The notes under the pieces: generated by a model
Told to the model about the DNA's origin: nothing
Database searches by the model: none
The model's input: only the letters and a program-made list of their open reading frames with translations
Made by a program: the position numbers and the translations under genes
In this document: piece by piece, positions 10,151 to 64,000 of the stretch
Layout: each line of letters starts with the position of its first letter
Numbering within the stretch: position 1 is the first letter of the stretch
Source: Stegostoma tigrinum
Taxonomy: Eukaryota
DNA: 64,000 nucleotides
Assembly (NCBI RefSeq): GCF_030684315.1
Contig: NC_081387.1
Coordinates: forward strand, 5,560,497-5,624,496
Reading direction: 5' to 3'

Positions 10151-10313
10151 CATCTGGAACACAATAAAGACCCACTCTCTTGTGGACCGAGAGGAGGAGA
10201 GTGCTGTCTTGGAGGTGAAAGGAGGACGTCGGGTTGGCTGTGCACCCTTGCGACCAGTGGATCTTAATGCTGGCTTCGGCCTAACGCTGGTTTAGGGGAG
10301 CAGCCAACCTGCA

Positions 10314-11776
10314 ATGATGGCTGCGGCAAGTGCTCGTGCCCCAGGTCAGGGGGTCCGGAACACCATCCGTGTTTCCGTAAAGAAGGTGGATGAAGGTGCA
10401 CCTGTGGACCACACCTTCTTCGTGAAGAGGGTCCTGTTGGACTGTTGTGGGTTCGCTGCTGCGGACATTTACTGCCTGCAGGATTTCCACGGAGGAGGTT
10501 TTTACGACGTGACCTTCAGGAGTGCCAAGCTTTGCGAGCGCTTCCTGGAGGTTTTCAAGGAGAAAGGAGGTGACGGCCCCCTCTCTATATTGACCACTGT
10601 CCCGCTGTTTGTGATGCCAGCGCAGAGGAGCCGTATGGTGACTGTACACACGTACAACCTGCATGTGCCAGCAGTTGATGTCCTGACCTTCCTCGGAAGG
10701 TACGTGAAGGTGGAAGGGGACCTAAGTGACATCGTGGACCCCTTTGGCATCTGGACGAGTAAGAGGCAGGTCAAGGTGACGCTGAGGATGGGCGCAGACA
10801 GGAATGTCGTACACCCACCATCCAGCTTCGCGATCGGCGAGAGCAAGGGCTACCTGACCTATGCAGGGCAACCTAAAGTCTGCCATGCCTGTGGTAGGTC
10901 AGGTCACGTGGCGGCCGACTGCAAAGCCACCATCTGCAGGAACTGCAGGGAGGAGGGACACCTTGCAAAGGATTGCCCACGAGAGAGAAGCTGCAACCTT
11001 TGCGGGGAAGCGGGCCACTTCTATAGGGCATGCCCGCAGCGGGGGACCACCTACGCCCAGGTCGCCGGCAGGGGCAATGCGGGGCCAGCCCCCCGGAGGA
11101 GAGGAAGGCACCAGGGCCCAGCAAGGACCCCACTAATGTGCAGGAGGGCCAGGCCGTGCAGGAGGGCCCAGCCCCCGCAGGATTGGCCCGAGGCCAGCAA
11201 AGCACCCCTGCAGGCTCCGCTCCCCCCGACAACCCGGAGTCGATGGAGGCGACAGGCGACCCAGGGGAGTGGAGAACGGTCCGGAAAGCGAGGAGGAAGG
11301 TGCGTCGACGGGGCCAGGAACCGCAACCATCAGGCGGGAAGAGGCAGCTACAGGGGGGCTATAAGAGCTCCTCTGACGAGGAGGATTCGGAGAGGGCCCG
11401 CCCGAAGCAGAAGTTAAAGATCTCGAGGGAGAAGGAAAGCAGCACCACGCTTCCAGGTGACGGGAGGCGTCCTGAGGCTCCCTCCGACACCCAGTCAAGT
11501 GCCGCTGGAGCACTGGAGGGCCTCCCGGGACTTCCAGGCGGGAAGGAGGTAACAGCGCATCCCCAGCCTGACCCGGAGCCGGACCCTCCTGCCTCTGCAC
11601 CCCTGACGGGGGGATGCCACCCGGAAGGCAGCACGGATGGTTTCCTGAGCCTGGAGAGCGTCCAGCAGTTAGCCCGGGCAATGGGCATGAAGGGACAGAT
11701 GGAGGGGCTGGACCTTGGACTTGGGGAGGGTACTGCGGTCACTGCCCACAATGGGGGTACGAGTTGCGAGCATTAA
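10314..11776 (+). pseudogene. Tx1-like ORF1 (RRM-like region plus 3 CCHC zinc knuckles, ZCCHC3-like), one frameshift near 11090
   Basis: CHACGRSGHVAADC, CRNCREEGHLAKDC, CNLCGEAGHFYRAC. The frame switches from ORF 10314..11417 to ORF 11030..11776. Confidence 0.88.
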
Positions 11777-14700
11777 TGTGCGCAGCGTCAAGTCAACCGC
11801 GAGATGTGTGTCCACGTTGGCCTACCTGACCACCATCAAGGCGGACCTCCTGTTTCTGCAGGAGTGCGGGATACCGCACCTCGGCAGGTACGGGAAATGG
11901 TCCGGCGCCTGGACCTGTGGGCCTTCGATCTGGTCGGGGTTAACGACTGTCGCTCCTCGGGCCTGGCTATTCTGCTGCGGGGGCGCGACTTCACCATCTC
12001 TCAAGTTCAGGAGGTGGTGGGGGGGCGCCTCCTAGTGGCTGACATCACCTACAGGAACGCTCCCCTGAGGCTGATCATCGTGTACACCCCAGTGGTACGG
12101 AGTGAGCGGTTGGCCGTCCTGCAGCGGCTTCCACCCCTGCTGGCTACATCCAGGCCAGTCATCCTAGGCGGAGACTTCAACTGCATCATTGATGCAGATG
12201 GAAGGTTTGGCTTGGGGACAGCGGGTGGGGGGAGTCAACTGGACGCCACGTCCAGATTCCTGATGGGCACGGTGAAGGACGCCAAGCTGCTCGACGTCTT
12301 CAGCACCCCTGCAGACGGAGCGCAGCGGAGGTACACCTGGTCGTGGCCAGATGGGTCTATCCGCTCAAGGATAGACTTCCTGTTTGTGTCACGGGCGTTC
12401 TCGGTCAGGTCCACCGGCGTCGAGCCGGTGTTCTTCTCTGACCACTGCCTCCTGCTGGCCGACTGTCACTTACAGGACGACCAGCTGGCCGGCAAGGGGA
12501 CGTGGAAGCTCAACACGACTCTGTTGACCCCAGAGAACGTCGAGGAGCTTAAGAGGGAGTACGTTGATTGGAGAACCATGAAACCCCTCTTTGAGTCTCC
12601 AGGCGACTGGTGGGAGACGGTGAAGGAGAACATCAAGAGGTTCTTTGTCCTCAAGGGTTTTCGGAAGGCGAGAGAGAGGCGGGGAAAGCTGTCGCGACTC
12701 CAGAAAAGGGTGCAGAACCTGCTCCTTCTGCAGTTGATGGGGGTCGATGTCATGGAGGACCTCCGCGAGGTGAGGGGCCAGCAAGCCTCGCTCTTCGCCG
12801 CGGAGGCCTCCAGGATAATCTTCCAGTCCAGGGTCCGCTCCGTGGAGCAGGACGAGACATGCTTGCGTTTCTTCTTTCAGAAGGTGCACAAAGAGAGCTC
12901 TGTGCTTAGCCGGCTGAAGGAGGACGACGGCTCGATGACGTCGTCTCGGCCCGACATTTTGAGGATCAGCAGATCCTTCTATGCCGGACTGTATGACACG
13001 AAGCCCACGGACAGCACAGCCTCCGAGTCGTTCCTGTCGTCTATCACGGAGGTCTTAGATGACGGCACGAGGGAGTGGCTGGACCGGCCGATGTCCCTGG
13101 ACGAGCTGACCAGAGCCCTCAAGTCCTTGGAGAGGAATAGGACTCCCGGAAGCGATGGCTTACTGGTCGAGCTGTATTCCGCTCTGTGGGGCCTGGTCGG
13201 CCAGGACCTGCTGGAGGTGTACGATAGTGCGCTTTGGGCAGGGGAAATGTGCAAGTCCATGAGGAAGGGCATCATCACCCTCATTTACAAGAGGAAGGGG
13301 GAGAGGGAAGAAATTAAGAATTGGCGTCCCATTTCACTATTGAACGTGGACTACAAAATCCTGGCCAAGGTCAGAGCCAAGACAACAAAATGTGAGGCTG
13401 GATGAACACAGCAGGCCAAGCAGCATCTCAGGAGCACAAAAGCTGACGTTTCAGGCCTAGACCCTTCATCAGAGAGGGGGATGGGGTGAGGGTTCTGGAA
13501 TAAATAGGGAGAGAGGGGGAGGCGGACCGAAGATGGAGAGAAAAGAAGATAGGTGGAGAGAGTATAGGTGGGGAGGTAGGGAGGGGATAGGTCAGTCCAG
13601 GGAAGACGGACAGGTCAAGGAGGTGGGATGAGGTTAGTAGGTTGATGGGGGTGCGGCTTGGGGTGGGAGGAAGGGATGGGTGAGAGAAAGAACAGGTTAG
13701 GGAGGAAGAGACAGGTTGGACTGATTTTGGGATGCAGTGGGTGGAGGGGAAGAGCTGGGCTGGTTGTGTGGTGCAGTGGGGGGAGGGGACGAACTGGGCT
13801 GGTTTAGGGATGCAGTTGGGGAAGGGGAGATTTTGAAACTGGTGAAGTCCACATTGATACCATTAGGCTGCAGGGTTCCCAGGCGGAATATGAGTTGCTG
13901 TTCCTGTAACCTTCGGGTGGCATCATTGTGGCACTGCAGGAGGCCCATGATGGACATGTCATCTAAAGAATGGGAGGGGGAGTGGAAATGGTTTGCGACT
14001 GGGAGGTTCAGTAGTTTGTTGCGAACTGAGCAGAGGTGTTCTGCAAAGCGGTCTCCAAGCCTCTGCTTGGTTTCCCCAATGTAGCGGAAGCCACACTGGG
14101 TACAGTGGATGCAGTATAGGTCATAGCCAACCGGGTCAGGTCTGTCCTGGAGTCAATGATTCACCCTGAACAAACCTGTGCTGTGCCGGGCAGGAATATC
14201 GCTGAGAGCCTCGCGCTCATCAGGGATACGATCGCCTACGTACAGGACAGGCGGGTGGACACCTGCCTCGTCAGCCTGGACCAGGAGAAGGCCTTCGACA
14301 GGGTCTCTCATGCTTACATGAGGGACGTCCTCTCCAAATTGGGGTTCGGGGAGGGCATCCGCAATTGGATCCGGCTGCTCTACGCCAACATCGTTAGCAC
14401 AGTCTCGATCAACGGGTGGAAATCAGACAGTTTTCCTGTTAGATCTGGAGTCAGGCAGGGCTGCCCGCTCTCTCCTGCCTTGTTCGTGTGCTGTGTGGAG
14501 CCCTTTGCCGCATCCATCAGGAAGGACGTGAGCCTGAAGGGCGTGACTATCCCAGGCAGCGGAGGCCTTCAGGTCAAGACCTCCCTGTACATGGACGATG
14601 TCGCCGTCTTCTGCACTGATCGTCGGTCGGTGAGTAGGCTGTTGGACATCTGCGGCCAGTTTGAACTGGCCTCGGGTGCCAAAGTCAATAGGGGTAAGAG

Positions 14701-15895
14701 CGAGGTCATGTTCTTCGGGAACTGGGACGACCGCTCCTTCATCCCCTTCACCGTCAGGACAGACTACCTGAAGGTGCTGGGTGCTTGGTTCGCTGGAGCT
14801 GGGGGGTGCACGAAGACTTGGGAGGAGCATATCACCAAACTGAAGCAGAAGCTGGGCAGGTGGACGCTCTGGTCCCTCTCCATTGCGGGTAAGAACCTTG
14901 TTGTCAGGTGCGAGGGGCTTTCGGTACTGTTGTATGTGGCACAGGCCTGGCCTATTCCCTGGGCCTGCGCCGCTGCAGTCACCCGGGCCATCTTCCACTT
15001 CATTTGGGGATCGAGGATGGACCGGGTCCGCAGGGATACCATGTACAAAGACCTGGAAAATGGGGGAAAGGACATACCGAACGCCACCCTCGCCCTGACG
15101 GCTACGTTTGTGTGCGGCTGCATCAAGCTGTGCGTAGATCCTCAGTACGCAAACACCAAGTGTCACTACTTACTGAGGTTCTACCTGTCCCCGGTGTTGC
15201 CGCGGAACACTCCGAGTAGTTGGACCGTTCCGTACCACCTGTCCTTTGCGGAGAAATTTTTGAAAGGAAACACCTTTGACCATAAGGACGTCAGGCAGTG
15301 GTCAGCACATAGTATCCTCGAGACCCTTCGGGAAAATGAGAGGGTGGATCCCGTCGTGTGGTTCCCCACGCAGACTGCCAAAGTCATTTGGCAGAATGCC
15401 TCATTGCCAGAACTTTCAAACAAGCACGAGGACATTGCTTGGCTGGCGGTGAGAGGGGCTCTGCTAGTGAGATCCTTTATGCATGCCCGGAATCTCTGCA
15501 CCACCGCACGCCGCCCTCGAGGTGGCTGCGGGGGGGATGAGACTGTCGATCACCTCCTTCTGGAGTGTGCCTATGCGCAGGAGGTCTGAAGGGGGATGCA
15601 GTGGTATTTGTCGAGGTTCGTCCCGAGCAGCTCCGTGACGCGGGACTCCGTGCTCTCCGGGCTGTTTCCCGGGACGCACACCAAGACCAACATCAACTGC
15701 GCCTGGAGGACCATCAATGCGGTGAAAGACGCTCTTTGGTCTGCCCGCAACTTGCTGGTCTGCCAGCTGAAAGAACTGACCCCGACCGAGTGTTGCAGAC
15801 TGGCGCACTCCAAGGTCCAGGACTATGTGCTGAGGGACGCGCTAAAGCTTGGGGCAGCCGCCACCAAGGCACGATTGGGAAAGACCACCGTATGA
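11751..15895 (+). pseudogene. Tx1-like ORF2 (endonuclease-reverse transcriptase), disrupted
   Basis: MGVRVASINVRS, LQEC, GGDFN, RIDF, SDH (APE); WRPISLLNVDYKILAK, DQEKAFD, GVRQGCPLSP, YMDD (RT); ETVDHLLLEC. Frameshift near 11940, insertion at 13381-14117, stop at 15587. Confidence 0.93.
13381..14117 (-). mobile_element. Penelope-like element inserted into the Tx1 RT domain
   Basis: 13-bp TSD aggtca(g/t)agccaa at 13368-13380 and 14118-14130. GIY-YIG C-terminal fragment (RRLQEQQLIFRLGTLQPNGINVDF) and hammerhead-type end. Confidence 0.92.
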
Positions 15896-16159
15896 AACCC
15901 CTCGTCCAGAATGGAAACAAGGGCCCTGTCTGGTAACTGGGCCCAACTGGTCAGGGGGCCAACGGGGACTGTGTGGGGTGACGACTGCCGGGGTGTTTTC
16001 TTTGCTTTGTTTTTTTTTCTCTGTTTTGTTTTGTTTTTCCTTTAGTTGGTGTATGTACCCCCTGGGTAACCCGGAGCGGCTTGCATGACTGGGTAGGTGT
16101 ATAAATATGTTTTATTTTTTTGGACATCTTATGAATAAAGTATATTTTTTTCCAACAAT

Positions 16160-19949: not shown

Positions 19950-21470
19950 CTTTCTTCCAAAAGGCTGATGTTTTGATGCTGCTATCAGAAGGCACATTCC
20001 AGAGTCTGCACTGGTCACTGAGATCTCTGAAGGCCTTATCAAAAAGCAGATTCCATTTGATGTCCTTATTTATGAAACTGGCAACAGTAGTATAATTATC
20101 TGAAATTAACTTCTCATTAATGTTGCTTCCGTATCCATTTAGCCCTTAGTTCTGGTGATATTCAGCACTGTGCTGTGAGTGCTCCCTGTTTGTACAATCA
20201 CACAGGACACCACAGAAAGGGCACTGCACCCCACAGCCACATAACATTGTGTACAATTCACTGGATGGATCTGTAGGGAAAGAAGTGATTTTCTCAGCAA
20301 TGTCCTACTCCTAATCTTTTAACGCTTTCAGTCAGATCATTTGTTCTGATAATATTTTCAGCTTCTTTTTTAAAGTCCTCGAGTTAATTTTTTCAGACTG
20401 AAAAGCAACAGGTCCCAGTATCTCCTGTGGAATCTGTATCTTGTCTTCCAGTTTTGTTTTAAATGCCAGAATGATCCCGGTCATTGACTTCTCATCAATT
20501 GGAGGTGTTATATCCTTCAGTGTTGCCCTCTCATGGGTGATAATCCCAAGGAGAATGTTCAGTGTGAGAGAGCATAGCAGAGGGACATATTCATGGTTTG
20601 TGGCTTCACAGTGTTGGTGAACTTATTCTTTCAGGCAACCTTTCTAGAATGACACAGTGTGTTGCATATATCAGTAATATTTATCAAAACTGTCTCTCCT
20701 TCAAATGCAGCATTGGATTCAATCTCCTACCTTCCAAATGCTTGTGGTTAATCATTTTTCACCACTGATTGAGACATTGAAAACCACATTTTCTCCAAAC
20801 CTGTATTGGAAATGACTTCTATTTTAATACCATTGTAAATGTTTTCAGACCTTCCTTTCCTTTGTGAACCAGCTTGTTATTCTCATTCATTATTCTCTCC
20901 TTGCAATTGCTCAGCTCCTCCTAATTCTTGAGGATCTGATTTTCTTCCCTTTCTGGGTTAGTTCCAGGAAGCTTTTCAATATGACCACAGTGACTCAGTA
21001 AAATCAATGTTATTCCCCGTTCTTTGCAGTTGATTAGCAGAATATTACCGGGATTACTTGTTACTGTAATTACATCATCTACAGAAATTGTATTGTCTGT
21101 CAGAACCAGACTCAGTTCTCGCTCACTAGGAGTTTGGTTACCTCCAAATGGGTCAGATTTCAGGTTGTGAATCTCTCTGAGCAGGCTCAGTTTCGAGCCA
21201 TGTACGGGATTAGCTCCAGTCCCACATTATTATCCGTGGCTTCCTATTGATGGAGGGTGGGCTCTGTTTCCAGAAATGGTTGCGTGGGAACTAATAAAAA
21301 CAGTAAATAGGTCAACTGCGCAACATTTGAAATAAGTGTAAATGTGGTACTAATATAACAATGATTTAAATGGTTTTTACTAAAATTTGGAATCTCACTT
21401 GTTTGATGTTCTTCCTCAGAATTCCTCTGGCATTGTTGCTGTAGGTTTCGAGTTTTATCTATGGGCAAGA
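19950..21470 (-). pseudogene. GVIN1/VLIG/URGCP-family very large GTPase pseudogene, C-terminal part
   Basis: One frame from about 20700 to 19950 reads SFDKYY*YMQHTVSF*KGCLKE*VHQHC...KITSFPTDPSSELYTMLCGCGVQCPFCGVLCDCTNREHSQHSAEYHQN*GLNGY...EKLI...TTVAS...WNVPSDSSIKTSAFWK. This matches the recalled family signature GC..QCPFC...C...H..H...HRP.GL.GY...W.I..D.S....YWK. The part above about 20700 is less certain. Confidence 0.8.
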
Positions 21471-25918: not shown

Positions 25919-26035
25919 CTCTCTGAGTCCTTTTCCACATTACTAATATAATTATTCCGACTATAACAGCCAGGGGAATGATCACAAATCCTGTTATTTC
26001 AAGATGCAAGTGTCTGGTGCCATTTCCTGGGTTTT
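25919..26035 (-). CDS. MHC class I-like gene B, connecting peptide and transmembrane exon
   Basis: Acceptor tgtgtttcag|, donor G|gtaagt, 117 nt, phase 1/1. Translates ENPGNGTRHLHLEITGFVIIPLAVIVGIIILVMWKRTQRG (hydrophobic helix then basic stop-transfer). Absent from the ORF track. Confidence 0.88.
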
Positions 26036-39593: not shown

Positions 39594-39872
39594 CCCACTG
39601 ATAGAGCTTGGCCTCTGCCAGGCTGCTGTGTTCAATTCGACAGGAATATTGATCCTCATCCCCAGCACTGATTTCAATCTCTTTCTGGATCTGATGGGTC
39701 CCATCATGGTTCGGTCGAATCCCCGAGGATTGTATCTCAGACACAACCTCTCCATTCCTTAGCCAGGTCACCTTGATGTCTACAGGATAAAATCCAGTGA
39801 CCAGGCAGGAGAGAGTGAGCGGCTTGTCCTGATGATTGGGCTCATTTCTGGAGATGAACACTTCAGGCTGAA
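39594..39872 (-). CDS. MHC class I-like gene B, alpha3 (Ig C1-set) exon
   Basis: Acceptor cccatcacag|, donor G|gtaagg, 279 nt. Translates VQPEV...LSCLVTGFYPVDIKVTWLRNG...PNHDGTHQ...YSCRIEHSSL. Confidence 0.96.
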
Positions 39873-39976
39873 CTGTGATGGGAAAGGGTGAGAACAGAAA
39901 CAATAGACAGACACTGAATGGAATGGGACAGCAGTTACATAGATCAGTGAGGTTAGATCAGAACTGAAATATATAC

Positions 39977-40252
39977 CTTTCCTTTTGAGATATTCCTTTC
40001 CAAAGTGTAAGCGTAGTTTTAAACGCTCAACAAGTTCTATTTCCAACTGCCATTTCCAGTATTTGTTCCAGGCTTTGTCTGAATTCCATTTTTCCGCAGT
40101 CTTCACTGCAAAGTGATTTGATGCGACCCATCTCATTCTGTCTGGATCTAAACTAATAAGATCATTTCCATCAAATCCAAATCGCATTGATGTCTTAATG
40201 GAGCCATCGTCATTTATTTCAACACTCCTTATCCATTGGAAAATGTGAATTC
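39977..40252 (-). CDS. MHC class I-like gene B, alpha2 exon
   Basis: Acceptor tattgtcag|, donor G|gtatat, 276 nt. Translates GIHIFQW...FGFDGNDLISLD...WVA...AVKTAEKWN...LHFGKEYLKRK. Confidence 0.94.
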
Positions 40253-41719
40253 CTGACAATAATGAGCAGGAAATAAGGAGCTATTATTGGTTGAAATGTC
40301 TTTTTATTACATGATAAATTTCTCTGTGGGTTCTATATTGCTATACCAGATTATAGTAAACCTAAAGTAGCTCAGTATTACAACAGATTCCTTTATTGGT
40401 TCATTCACAGCAGGATTTATTACTGTAAAACTGGTTCTGTACACAGTACTGAAGGAATATTTGTGTGAAAATATCTACTGCCTGTGAATATCTCCATTTT
40501 GTGAAACCCAGGTTGCTCTGCAGAATTTGCACAGTGTATACTACTTTTGATGGTGCACAGGAGATAAATCCTGACCCCCCCCCAATGAAGCCATCCAGGC
40601 AATACCTACATTGTCAAGTGAAAGTGGGTCGGTAAGAAAATCAGTGTAAGGAACTCAGCTCCTGGGGTCTGTAGCTATGATGAAGAAAGTTCAATAAACT
40701 CACGAGGTAGGTTCACAGCTCCAGCCTCACTGCTACAATATTCCTGCGCTCTTCTCCCTGCTGGGTCATACAATCATTGCTCCGCACTTCACTATGTCTG
40801 TTCACGTTTCAAATGAAATGCCAAACCTGTTCTCCCTTCTCATATAGATAAAGTCATAGAGATGGACAGCACGGAAACAGTTTGGATGAGTTTGGTCTAA
40901 CTCATCCATGCCGAACAGATATCTTAAATCAGACTAGTCCCATTTGCCAACGTTTGGCCCATATCCCCCTAAATCCTTCCTATTCATACACCCACATAAG
41001 ATTTACAGTAAACACAAAATCAGAGCCCAACTTCACTTCAAAACAAAGAAGAGATTTGCTGAAGCAGTCTCATATTATATGACATCATCTCCAAGGTGAA
41101 GTCACTCATAGGCTGCTCTCCCATTATAGAAAAAAAAAACTGGTGGTGGTTTAACCCAGGGGTATTGGCTAGCTCTGTTAGCTGGATGGCTGGTTTGCAA
41201 TGTAGAGTAATGTCAACAGCATAGGTTCAACTCCCACACTAGCTGAGGCTACCATAAAGGATTCTCCTTCTCAGGCTGACCCCTTGCCTGAGCATGGTGA
41301 ACCTCATGTTACAACATCAGCAGTGTTTTCTCTCCCTAATGAGAGGTATCAAAGATTCCAAAGCATTATTCTGAAGAAACACTGAGGAGTTATCCTCACT
41401 CTGTTGACAAATATTTACTCCTCAGTCAACATCATAAGAAGTGTTGTATTGTCACATGTTGTTGTGGGAACTGGCTGTGTTCAAGCTAGTTACTCTATTC
41501 CCCACACTGCAGTAGTGACCACTTTGTGACTCTGAAGATAAGCTGTTCTGAGTTTGAGAAAGGTCTTATGTAAATCTATATTTGCCCTCTTTTCCCTCAT
41601 GCTCATCACAGCTACATTCCTCACTTCTCGACAACTCATATATCTCCTACACTGCAAACAAATTAATTCCTCTGTGACAGGCATCTCAGTGAATATTATC
41701 ACTAATTTAATCCAATCAC

Positions 41720-46648: not shown

Positions 46649-46909
46649 CGGATGTCTGGTTTGTACTCTTCATTATCGTCTTCAGGTTCTCCTTTGCAAT
46701 GGCACAATGTTTATTCCCTCGATTTGTGAGATATTCCCAGTATTCCTCATCAAAGGCATCTGTCATCCACTGCTGTCGGGAGACTATGCGAGGGGCACTG
46801 CTGTCATAATAGGCCACCGGAACTCCGTCGATCATTCCCACTCCAACATACTCAGGTAAATCAGTGGTGCCAGAGGTGGCTAAGTACATTACCATAAATT
46901 TATTCCTGT
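46649..46909 (-). CDS. MHC class I-like gene B, alpha1 exon
   Basis: Acceptor ctttctacag|, donor G|gtaaga, 261 nt. Translates DRNKFMVMYLATSG...YYDS...RQQWM...EEYWE...TNQTSG. Confidence 0.94.
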
Positions 46910-49157: not shown

Positions 49158-49209
49158 CGGAAGAGACCCAGGAAAAACACAGGGAGATAGAGAAAAGAAT
49201 CAGCAACAT
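49158..49209 (-). CDS. MHC class I-like gene B, leader peptide exon (coding part)
   Basis: MLLILFSISLCFSWVSS + G|gtaagt, 52 nt, phase 1. Confidence 0.92.
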
Positions 49210-59450: not shown

Positions 59451-62068
59451 GAGGTTGCTGATTGAAAGACTTGGAAGCTTTATGGCAACAGTTTCCTTCA
59501 TTGTGCAACTGACCCTTTGTTTTCACTTACACTGAAGTTTAGTAATATCACTGCATGTGCCTGTGTTAACAAAGCACCATCTTTCAGGGGTCAAAGCACA
59601 CATAAAACTTGAAACTGAAGACCAGAGACCATCGTCCAAGACAGAAACAGAAGACAACAGCAGGGACCAAGGGAAGTAAGGCTAGGGTTGCCGGCACTCT
59701 AGGTTGAATATAGAAAGAGACCTCGATGAGGCAATAGATTTCCTACCTAGACTTGTTAAGTATTACTTCTGGTAGTTGACAAACATTTCTTAAGTTACAT
59801 CACCACAGTATCTCCTCCTGATTGAGTGGTTAAAGTCTCTAGTGAAGAAATAGATATTCAATGACTAAAAAGTCATGGGCAACATGTTTAAACTCAAACT
59901 CCATTTTCAACACCCTCCCTTCAACTTTAGTCCATCTCCTGTTGTAATCCTCATCCATGTTGCAGGTGCTTCTAGACAGGACTAATGTGTTCCTGTCCAG
60001 GTTCCCGTCCAGCTTCCCATCTTATACCTTCCATAAACTTTCTCTCAGCTAAAACTGTGCACTCTCTATCCTAACTTTCACGTCCATCACTGCTGTGCTC
60101 ACTGAACTACATTAGTTTCTATGTCCCTAGTGCCTCAAATTAAAAATTCTCATGTTCAAACACAAATTGCTCTACGGCCTCACTCCTTCCTTATCTGTGT
60201 CATCCTCCGATCTACACAGTTCAGTTCATCAGTAGATGTGGCCCACTTCCTTCACGTCACCAAGATGGCTGGATCCTATGCTCATGAATTTCCACCTCAA
60301 AACTCTTTTTCTCTCTTCTCACTTAACCACCATCACCACAGCCCCTAACTCCTCCTCACCTATCCTTAATCATAGAGGACATCTATTCAGGGTTGAGAGT
60401 TACAGCAACTGATCTTTATGGGTCTGACCGTGCGGATTCGTGACCCACAGATTTTTGGGAACGGGGGTATAATTTTCAAAAGGATCTAGAGAGCAGGAAT
60501 TGCTTCATTTTTTTAAAAAACTAAGCTACTGCCGTACGTCATCACTAAGCCATTGAGACTCAAAAGTATTATATACAAGTTTTTGTCATGGTGGCTCTCT
60601 GTCACTAAGGTCAATATATAAACAACTCCGAAGCTGTGAAGGGGAGCTGATACCTTCCAACCTATCCCAATCCCAGCAATCAGATGAAATAAAAAAGCCT
60701 ACAGTCACAATGGTATTCTGGCTGAGCTCAAAGCTGGCAGACATTTGCTCACATGAAGAGTCCATTCCCTCATTCCACGGATTTCCGAAGCAAACGAGTT
60801 TCCCTTTGCTTCAGGAATGTCAAAAGTGTAACTATATTCAAGAGATAAATCATGCTGTGCAAACTACTAAGATGTTTCCAGCTTGACCATAACTTGGGAA
60901 ATACTGACACATTCTTCTGAATTACCCACATCTTGTGGTTGAGGAAATCCTCCTCGGAGATGCAGCGCTATTCCTTATCATATCTTTCTCGTTTCAGTGT
61001 CAATTTCTATACGATTGTAGTGATGTAAAATACCTCAGGATGTATTACGGTATTGGTGCCGTATAAATGAAAGTTGTTGTTTTTGTAGGGGGTGGGGGAA
61101 ATTGATGTCCTTTTTCCCCATTCCCTCCAATACACAAGGTATTAACCCGGGGGACAGACTGGATGTTGACTGGCCACTAGTGCTCTCTGTTTGAGCGGCC
61201 AGTCAGCATGTGAGACAATGGAGACTTTCACAGCCAAGATACATCCTGCCTTCCCCTAACCTCCCAGATGGGCTCAGTGATGAGGAACAGGATTCCTGGC
61301 TGACTGTCTCCCTGCACAGACCAGAGACATTGAGGCTAATTGGAAGTACCACCAATACCACTCGAGGAATGGCTCTTGTCCCAGAGTTCATGCTGGTCAA
61401 TCAGAAGCTGAAGCCTTTCTAACCACTGAGTATTGGATTGTCTTCTTGGTCAGATTGAGAGTCAGTGAATGACATGTACCTGGCACGGCACCGAAAAGAT
61501 GTTGCGTTTATACAGGAGCCTCTATACATAGAGGTATCTTCTTTTGGTGATTCAGTCAAAGGTTAAATTGACCTTCTTGAAGTGATTGGACTGATGGTGG
61601 GAAAGTTTTGAGACACACATTGTTGAGGCAGATGGTGCTTTGGAATGACAACTGCCCCGTAAGAGCACTGGAGGGTAAACAGCACAGACAGCTCTCAGTG
61701 CAACAGAAGCAGGTGACTCAGCTCCAAGTCTGTATGGAGACATTGGTATGCGGTGAGACCAGTAGCAAGTAAACCATTGTGGTTGACTTCACACAGGAAC
61801 AGGAGTGTACCCCCTGAATGAGTTCACCTGGTGTTCCACAATAGCCGAGAACCGACTAAAAGCCTTATTACTGAATTCACACTGAACAGGTTTCTCATGT
61901 GGAAGGGGCCAGGACTTACACTGACAGCGTGAAAGTTATGTCACATGGCTCTCGCCTGAATGGTTTCTCACCGGATGGATCCCCCTGGTTTTAGGAGGTC
62001 AGAGATGTGGCTGAAAGTCCTGTTGCAAACGTCACAAAAGTCTCAACAGAAACCTCTCGTTTGAAGGG

Positions 62069-63160
62069 TTACTCTCCTGTCTGGGCATCCTGTGGGAGCA
62101 GTAAGTATGACGACTCAGACAATGATTTGTTGCACACCCCGTATGTTAACTGTTTCTCCCCTGCATGAATGCGCTGGTGTTTCCGCAAATTTGAAGAATC
62201 TGAGAATGATTTGTCACACACCTCGCATGTGAATGGCTTCTCCCCTGTGTGGATGCGTTGGTGCAGAAGCAGGGTCCAAGACCGTGAGAATGACTTCTCA
62301 CACACCTCACAGGTGAAGGGGTTCTCCCCAGTGTGAATGCGCTGGTGCTCGAGGAGGGTTGATGAGCGCAAGAATGATTTATCGCATACCTCACAGATGA
62401 AAGGTTTCTCCCCAGTGTGTATGCGTCGGTGCTGCAGGAGGGTCGATGATCGTGTGAATGATTTATCACACACCTCACATGTGAATGGTTTCTCTCCAGT
62501 GTGAATACGCTGGTGCACAAGCAGTGGCCAAGACTGAGAGAAAGACTTGTTGCACACCTCGCATTTGAATGGCTTGTCACCGGTGTGGATGCGTTGGTGA
62601 GTCATGAGCGTCGCTGAGAGTGTGAATGCCTGATCACACACCTCACACTTGAACGGTTTCTGACCAGTGTGACGGTATTGGTGCTTGCGAAGATTTGATG
62701 GGTACGAGAATGATGTGTCGCACACATCGCATGTATATGGCTTCTTCCCAGTATGAATGCGTTGGTGCGCACGGAGATTTGATGACTGTGAGAAAGATTT
62801 GTTGCACACGTTACACGTGAATGGCTTCTCCCCTGTGTGAATGCGATGGTGCACACGGAGGGTTGATGACTGTGCAAACGATTTGTGGCATACCTCGCAC
62901 GTGAATGGTTTCTCCCTGGTGTCTGTGTCTCCCTGGTTGAGGAAGGTTGATAACTGTGAGAATGAGCTATTGTATGTCTCACATGTCACTGATTTCTCCC
63001 CTGTGTGAATCTTCGGGTAGGACAAGAGGTGGGAGGATTGAGTGAAAGGCATTTCAGAAACATCACAGCTGAAGGGCTTCTCCCAGGCATGCATCATCTG
63101 CCTCGGAGACATCACAATAGCTTCAGTACAAACCTCACACTTGAATGGTTTCTCTTCCAT
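62069..63160 (-). CDS. Tandem C2H2 zinc-finger protein (9 intact and 4 degenerate fingers)
   Basis: Repeated CxxC...HxxxH with TGEKP linkers in a 363-aa ORF. Confidence 0.88.
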   Translation of the reverse strand: MEEKPFKCEVCTEAIVMSPRQMMHAWEKPFSCDVSEMPFTQSSHLLSYPKIHTGEKSVTCETYNSSFSQLSTFLNQGDTDTREKPFTCEVCHKSFAQSSTLRVHHRIHTGEKPFTCNVCNKSFSQSSNLRAHQRIHTGKKPYTCDVCDTSFSYPSNLRKHQYRHTGQKPFKCEVCDQAFTLSATLMTHQRIHTGDKPFKCEVCNKSFSQSWPLLVHQRIHTGEKPFTCEVCDKSFTRSSTLLQHRRIHTGEKPFICEVCDKSFLRSSTLLEHQRIHTGENPFTCEVCEKSFSRSWTLLLHQRIHTGEKPFTCEVCDKSFSDSSNLRKHQRIHAGEKQLTYGVCNKSLSESSYLLLPQDAQTGE

Positions 63161-64000
63161 GTGCCTATCTGTGTGTTCACAACTGAAGCACCTTGCGTGA
63201 GAGGTGGTGTCAGGACTCTTGAGCCTTCCACGAACGCCTCACATTTGAATAGAACTGAGTCAGTGGCTCATGAGGCTTGATGAATGGATGAAGCTCTTAC
63301 CACACTTGGATCCACTCACACTTCTTCAGCCTCCACTCTGACCGAACATCCACAGCCAAATCTTCAGATGGGCTGGTTCTGATGGAAGGTTCCACACTCT
63401 GATCAATTTCAGATGATATGTCAAAACCTCCCCTGACCCAAACAAACAATTTCCAGATGATGGTTTCACCGCCCAACCTTCTTTGTGTCAAGCAATTTAA
63501 AGGGACTGGATGTCTTCCCACTTTTGTGTAGTTGTTCCTTGGATGATGGTCAGGATCTCTGTGGTATCTATCCTCTCTGTATTCTCTGGTATAGTACAGT
63601 GCAATCCTTCTGTAAAACAAGAAAAGGAAACATGATTTATCCATCTCCATTTCCATCTCCTCCTTTGCTGAAGGGGCTGGCTCTCATTTGGAGACTGGCA
63701 CTCACTGTGGAACAGTTTGCTAATTCCCTGTGTGGAGGAGTCAGATACAAGGTCTTTCTGTTCCCTCACTTGTGTGATATCCTGTTTCCAGCAGGGACAC
63801 TGGATAGGGACAGTAATAGACAATGTCGCTACTTTCTTTCCTCACTCAACCTCCTCCCAAGCACAGTGAGGGCACAGAAAGAGAGAGTGGATATCGCGTG
63901 AACTGGCTTTCAATTCATGATAAGCTTGAGTCTTGACCTTTAGGAAATGCACTTGACAAAGTGATGCTCAGGTGAAAACGTTGATTCAATACGTTGAAAA

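Follow-up and report, generated by a model that had tools for sequence, protein, structure and literature searches.

An intact MHC class I heavy-chain gene of Stegostoma tigrinum, likely of the shark UEA lineage, without the C101-C164 disulfide

The window, a stretch of 64,000 nucleotides of Stegostoma tigrinum DNA on the contig here called C44, carries on its minus strand a seven-exon MHC class I heavy-chain gene that runs from 49209 to 21244 with canonical splice sites; its translation is exactly that of RefSeq XP_048376311.1 (P0003), a protein labelled Stegostoma tigrinum with the precomputed Pfam domains PF00129 and PF07654. Exon 1 (49158-49209) encodes the leader peptide, matches residues 1-17 of this protein exactly and ends in a GT donor. 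Exon 2 (46649-46909) encodes the alpha1 domain and has Val in place of Y7, a conserved Y59, the N86 glycan site and an unpaired Cys71 (codon at 46706); all residue numbers follow the HLA-A2 scheme and were read off alignments. Exon 3 (39977-40252) encodes an alpha2 domain without any cysteine, exon 4 (39594-39872) an alpha3 C1-set domain with a normal cysteine pair (39807 and 39642), exon 5 (25919-26035) the connecting peptide and transmembrane helix, exon 6 (21399-21458) a cytoplasmic segment and exon 7 (21244-21290) the cytoplasmic end; exons 5 and 6 are part of the match to P0003. Thus, the gene has the leader, alpha1, alpha2, alpha3, transmembrane and tail exons of a class I heavy chain together with a platform-plus-C1 fold, and both the alpha3 disulfide and the N86 glycan site are present.

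The tail is short: a TAG stop at 21244-21246 (minus strand) stands where the orthologues have Gln, the orthologue frame is still recognisable past this stop, and the tail is at least 32 residues shorter than in the five orthologues shown. The truncation removes an acidic, di-leucine-like stretch that is found in bamboo and epaulette shark. Two RefSeq isoforms skip alpha2 (39977-40252) in frame, X3 (P0042) partly, by use of an internal AG at about 40148, and X4 (P0103) wholly.

Elsewhere in the window, a long open frame at about 62000-63250 (minus strand) encodes about a dozen C2H2 zinc fingers, and non-LTR retroelement-like frames lie at about 10300-15900 (plus strand), which a short repeat interrupts near 13400-14100; by their motifs, we take these frames to be a zinc-knuckle ORF1, an endonuclease and a reverse transcriptase. 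The leader and alpha1 exons of the next family member lie at 2790-2162 (minus strand) and continue outside the window (G000:C44:5557390-5557659); its alpha2 exon (L005), just beyond the window, also has Val101 and Leu164.

The alpha2 exon (40252-39977, minus strand) is 276 bp long, has an AG acceptor, a GT donor and phase 1/1, and translates into 91 whole codons with no stop and no cysteine. In gap-free alignments to the solved class I chains 7cpo and 9eb3, C101 is replaced by Val (GTT at 40223) and C164 by Leu (CTT at 40034), and the residue equivalent to Cys in the motif QWIRSVE is the Val and not the Ser. The original prediction of an open, well-spliced exon that has lost both partners of the alpha2 disulfide, a typical if not universal class I trait, is thereby confirmed. 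The mature ectodomain has three cysteines, the alpha3 pair and Cys71; a replacement bridge is impossible, since Cys71 is the only ectodomain cysteine outside the alpha3 pair.

A search of the same genome, in which 36 candidates were scored, identified 29 alpha2 exons as a lower bound, all on C44. At least 19 of these belong to the same family as the gene described here (53-100% identity, 5.53-7.07 Mb) and none of the 19 has C101: 18 have Val and one has Ala. Among the 14 family exons that align as far as residue 164, this position is Leu in six, Phe in six, Tyr in one and Cys in one. The paralogues thus share the loss of C101 throughout, and C164 is kept in 1/14. Outside the family, all ten alpha2 exons have retained both cysteines; with the exception of L028, they resemble the published UAA, UBA, UDA and UGA queries. 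L028 (G000:C44:6718136-6718393) has both canonical cysteines and two more, groups loosely with the UGA-like exons and has no close match by eye among the published queries. A midpoint-rooted tree of 24 rows, 14 from the family and 10 from other lineages, separates the two groups with 100/99 support. As to the placement by tree that had been proposed for the gene, this exon tree sets the family apart, and the published queries were compared by eye, outside the tree. Chance or a sequencing slip was considered as the cause of the cysteine loss and is ruled out by the codons for Val101 and Leu164, which are each two changes away from TGT, by the identical RefSeq XP_048376311.1, by a contig of run X19, possibly the source sample, that has no differences to the window over 39930-40320, and by the presence of both cysteines in all ten exons of the other lineages.

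Two database searches returned 53 and 77 proteins, and all named matches are from sharks (13 species), in a shared-word search that would miss distant ray genes. These proteins yield 82 distinct alpha1+alpha2 units, which include isoforms and orthologues and are thus not independent (the alpha2-truncated isoform P0042 was left out): none of the 82 has C101 and only six have C164. Unpaired Cys71 is present in 13/82 units and 29 others have an unpaired cysteine at about position 45 instead; the two never occur together, and a compensating disulfide is ruled out for the family as well. On these sequences, the loss of C101 is a trait of the lineage and not of this gene. A single change of C101 to Val probably preceded the radiation of the family (and probably that of the dogfish UCA line), and the orphaned C164 would then have drifted to Leu, Phe, Tyr, Cys, Ser or Gly.

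Could the missing cysteines be a sign of a decaying gene? Several paralogues are indeed broken, with stops in the alpha3 of L010 and in L012, L013, L018 and L019, and the tail of the gene itself is shortened by a stop codon. However, the seven-exon frame is open with canonical splice sites, pairwise dN/dS of alpha2 is 0.24-0.47 against all 13 paralogues compared and thus below 0.5, a sign of purifying selection, orthologues in 10 shark species are 79-95% identical over alpha1+alpha2, and the cysteine loss is common to intact family members too. We consider decay highly improbable, and the original prediction, which had argued against decay and proposed the dN/dS estimate, is borne out. A contig of run X1, a run from another organism that we guess to be RNA, differs from 40130-40253 at 2 of 124 positions and continues into letters that match the end of the alpha1 exon (28/30); it appears to be the spliced alpha1-alpha2 join of a close relative, which is not proof of expression in Stegostoma tigrinum. 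An expression search turned up no RNA record with the sequence, a result that speaks neither for nor against expression. Between the paralogues L001-L016, dS is 0.03-0.25 in alpha3 and 0.53-1.06 in alpha2; the low alpha3 values suggest that these alpha3 exons were homogenised by gene conversion.

The gene likely belongs to the shark UEA lineage, a name that rests on its neighbourhood and on by-eye identity to a query labelled UCA. According to PMC10751288, single-copy UDA and the multicopy UEA genes form one large class Ib cluster that has brd2 and beta-2 microglobulin on one side and hsd17b8, rxrb, slc39a7 and col11a2 on the other, while UBA forms a cluster of its own; PMC12562908 names UEA as an expanded, ancient shark family. 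C44 has a corresponding arrangement: the at least 19 family exons match the multicopy class Ib state of UEA, the contig carries a BET-domain gene (5.34 Mb), a UDA-like exon (6.41 Mb) and a ZIP gene (9.14 Mb), and UBA-like exons follow at 10.7-11.1 Mb. UDA, the brd2 side and the slc39a7 side are thus all represented, the names brd2 and slc39a7 being assigned from gene family and place. The suggestion that the gene is part of a multigene non-classical lineage such as UEA is supported by this multicopy state and neighbourhood. UCA proper is reportedly confined to dogfish, and UEA reportedly occurs in sharks but is absent from rays and chimaeras (Almeida et al. 2021). The query file of PMC10751288 contains no sequence named UEA, but its nurse-shark query 'Gcirratum_UCA' matches, by eye, 63/91 residues of this alpha2 exon (69%), 85/91 of the paralogue L002 and 84/93 of the alpha3 of this gene. 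We infer that this nurse-shark 'UCA' is UEA under an earlier label.

The predicted model of the protein has a class I fold with a pLDDT of about 92-94 over most of alpha2 (70-sequence alignment), and its best PDB matches are class I molecules and MR1; model and matches speak for the fold, not for stability. H93, Q96, D119 and G120, which we take to be beta-2m contacts, are kept. Eight anchors of classical class Ia (UAA) are Y7, Y59, Y/R84, T143, K146, W147, Y159 and Y171 (list from PMC4364491). Four are kept (Y59, T143, K146 and W147) and four are replaced (Y7V, Y84S, Y159Q and Y171R), in addition to W167R: the gene does not have the anchor set of a classical molecule, and these five replacements support the remodelled groove that had been predicted. 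Whether this groove is also more flexible, as first proposed, is another matter, as the Val/Leu pair beside the near-invariant Leu160/Leu168 and the Trp-rich wall could equally be rigid. Across the family, M114, W133, W147, W152, W156, L160 and L168 are invariant or near-invariant, with Trp152 in 82/83 and Trp156 in 83/83 sequences. The most variable sites include 158, 159, 162-164, 166, 167, 170 and 173, and residues 158-174 have a mean entropy of 1.74 bits, compared with 0.69 and 0.78 bits elsewhere in alpha2 and 1.68 bits in the alpha1 helix. Positive selection beside the lost bridge was not found among nine paralogues: dN/dS in 158-174 is 0.43 and dS is raised too. This estimate covers 9 of the 14 full-length family exons and omits L002 (a near twin of L003), L010, L012 and L013 (stops) and L014 (an insertion). 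Since entropy is high in 158-174 and dN/dS is yet only 0.43, relaxed and divergent change cannot be told apart in these sequences.

Our main reading, to which we give a probability of roughly 0.5, is that the window holds an intact non-classical gene for a class I heavy chain, likely UEA, in which a bridge that is missing family-wide is replaced by hydrophobic residues, and that the gene product, together with beta-2m, likely displays on the cell surface a conserved ligand that is non-peptide or amphipathic. Packing of Val101 and residue 164 with Leu160 and Leu168 would substitute for the bridge. One half of the groove would be aromatic and constant (Trp97, Met114, Phe116, Trp133, Trp147, Trp152 and Trp156), and the residues 158-174 by the lost bridge, which vary among paralogues, would set the ligand of each gene. 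Groove shape and side-chain directions are here taken from HLA-A2 geometry and not from model coordinates.

The retained T143, K146, W147 and Y59 fit peptide binding equally well and count against a non-peptide ligand. The molecule might thus present a narrow set of peptides, as HLA-E and H2-M3 do, held mainly at the C-terminus with the N-terminal end open or altered, and it is also true that peptide-binding class I molecules are its best fold matches. However, Y7, Y84, Y159 and Y171 are replaced, and K146 and W147 are present throughout the family and may have a structural role. Mutation of C101-C164 in HLA-A2 abolishes TAPBPR binding (PMC6926029), which is a further argument against narrow peptide presentation, and we regard it as unlikely. 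As HLA-A2 bridge mutants lose TAPBPR binding, loading outside the classical route is suggested, and ligands of the shark molecule would likely bypass classical peptide editing.

Within the same lineage, the gene could also encode a molecule that binds nothing because its own Trp side chains occupy the groove, and that acts on an NK-type or other receptor as a fixed ligand or else serves outside immunity; MICA, HFE and FcRn are precedents for such class I molecules. The near-invariant Trp152 and Trp156 at groove-facing positions are compatible with a closed groove, and the conservation across 10 species resembles that of single-function molecules. In contrast, no deletion narrows the platform, and paralogues differ above all in residues 158-174 and the alpha1 helix, which is expected if the groove surface matters. 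We consider a closed groove possible, if doubtful.

Returning to the reading of a displayed ligand, the gene itself is strongly conserved: a quick tree built from the 82 units places it in a 12-row clade with short branches (SH-aLRT 96) that covers 10 of the 13 species, and all these orthologues have the unpaired Cys71. For Cetorhinus, Pristiophorus and Heptranchias no clear orthologue was found among the 82 units, but the Heptranchias protein P0075 is the only unit with Cys71 beyond the 12 orthologue rows. The form that this gene has at the end of the lost bridge, with Arg66, Arg99, Arg167 and Arg171, has been constant across the 10 species and suggests one conserved ligand or receptor. A more far-reaching version, which we consider rather improbable, would be a gene, near-fixed across four shark orders within a family of fast turnover, for an MR1-like molecule that is basic at one end, lined with Trp at the other and uses a conserved free Cys71 to capture its ligand covalently or to form dimers through a disulfide; the loss of the bridge would have freed helix 158-174 for paralogue-specific ligands. 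Position 71 presumably faces the outer flank of the helix and not the groove, judged from HLA-A2 geometry, and covalent capture through Cys71 is the less likely for it. The conserved orthologue would be the best family member for expression and crystallisation to find the ligand of the family.

PMC8236899 describes the C101-C164 bridge as well conserved and credits it with stabilising that region of the platform which lacks Ig-domain support. A family that has managed without this bridge from a time before cow sharks and galeomorph sharks diverged is a natural test of the purpose of the bridge; the trait belongs to a described lineage and is not particular to this gene. In fact, the published alpha2 sequences of both 'Gcirratum_UCA' and 'Sacanthias_UCA' (PMC10751288 supplement) have Val101 and no C164. 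Novelty, which had been made dependent on the absence of the trait from known lineages, is thus largely gone: the whole lineage shares the loss, which published reference sequences already show, while an explicit printed description was not found. Our literature search yielded no statement that UEA or UCA lacks the disulfide, and nothing on it in the teleost H-lineage paper; the two primary papers, their supplements and Wang et al. 2003 may well state it. The disulfide loss is largely an ordinary trait of a described multi-gene family.

UAA, UBA, UDA and UGA share exon layout, predicted fold and contig with the gene, but keep C101-C164 (in the ten exons of this genome and in the published queries) and are only 26-37% identical to it in alpha2. 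Dogfish UCA (Squalus acanthias AF515705) has Val101, no Cys at 164 and the strand motif FQW-x-x-x-VE, as here; however, only about 33/91 alpha2 residues (about 36%, by eye) are identical, too few for UCA in the strict sense, and it lacks T143, K146 and W147, all kept by this gene. UEA resembles the gene in being multicopy class Ib, clustered with UDA between brd2 and the genes of the slc39a7 side. The nurse-shark 'Gcirratum_UCA' has the same Val101/Leu164 pair but corresponds to another paralogue, while this gene belongs to the conserved orthologue group with Cys71, Arg167 and Arg171. MR1 and chicken YF1, with aromatic or basic grooves for small non-peptide ligands, share the class I fold and are comparable in the way they may work only: MR1, although among the fold matches, is about 31% identical and no orthology is claimed, and YF1 keeps both cysteines (9eb3 alignment) that are absent here.
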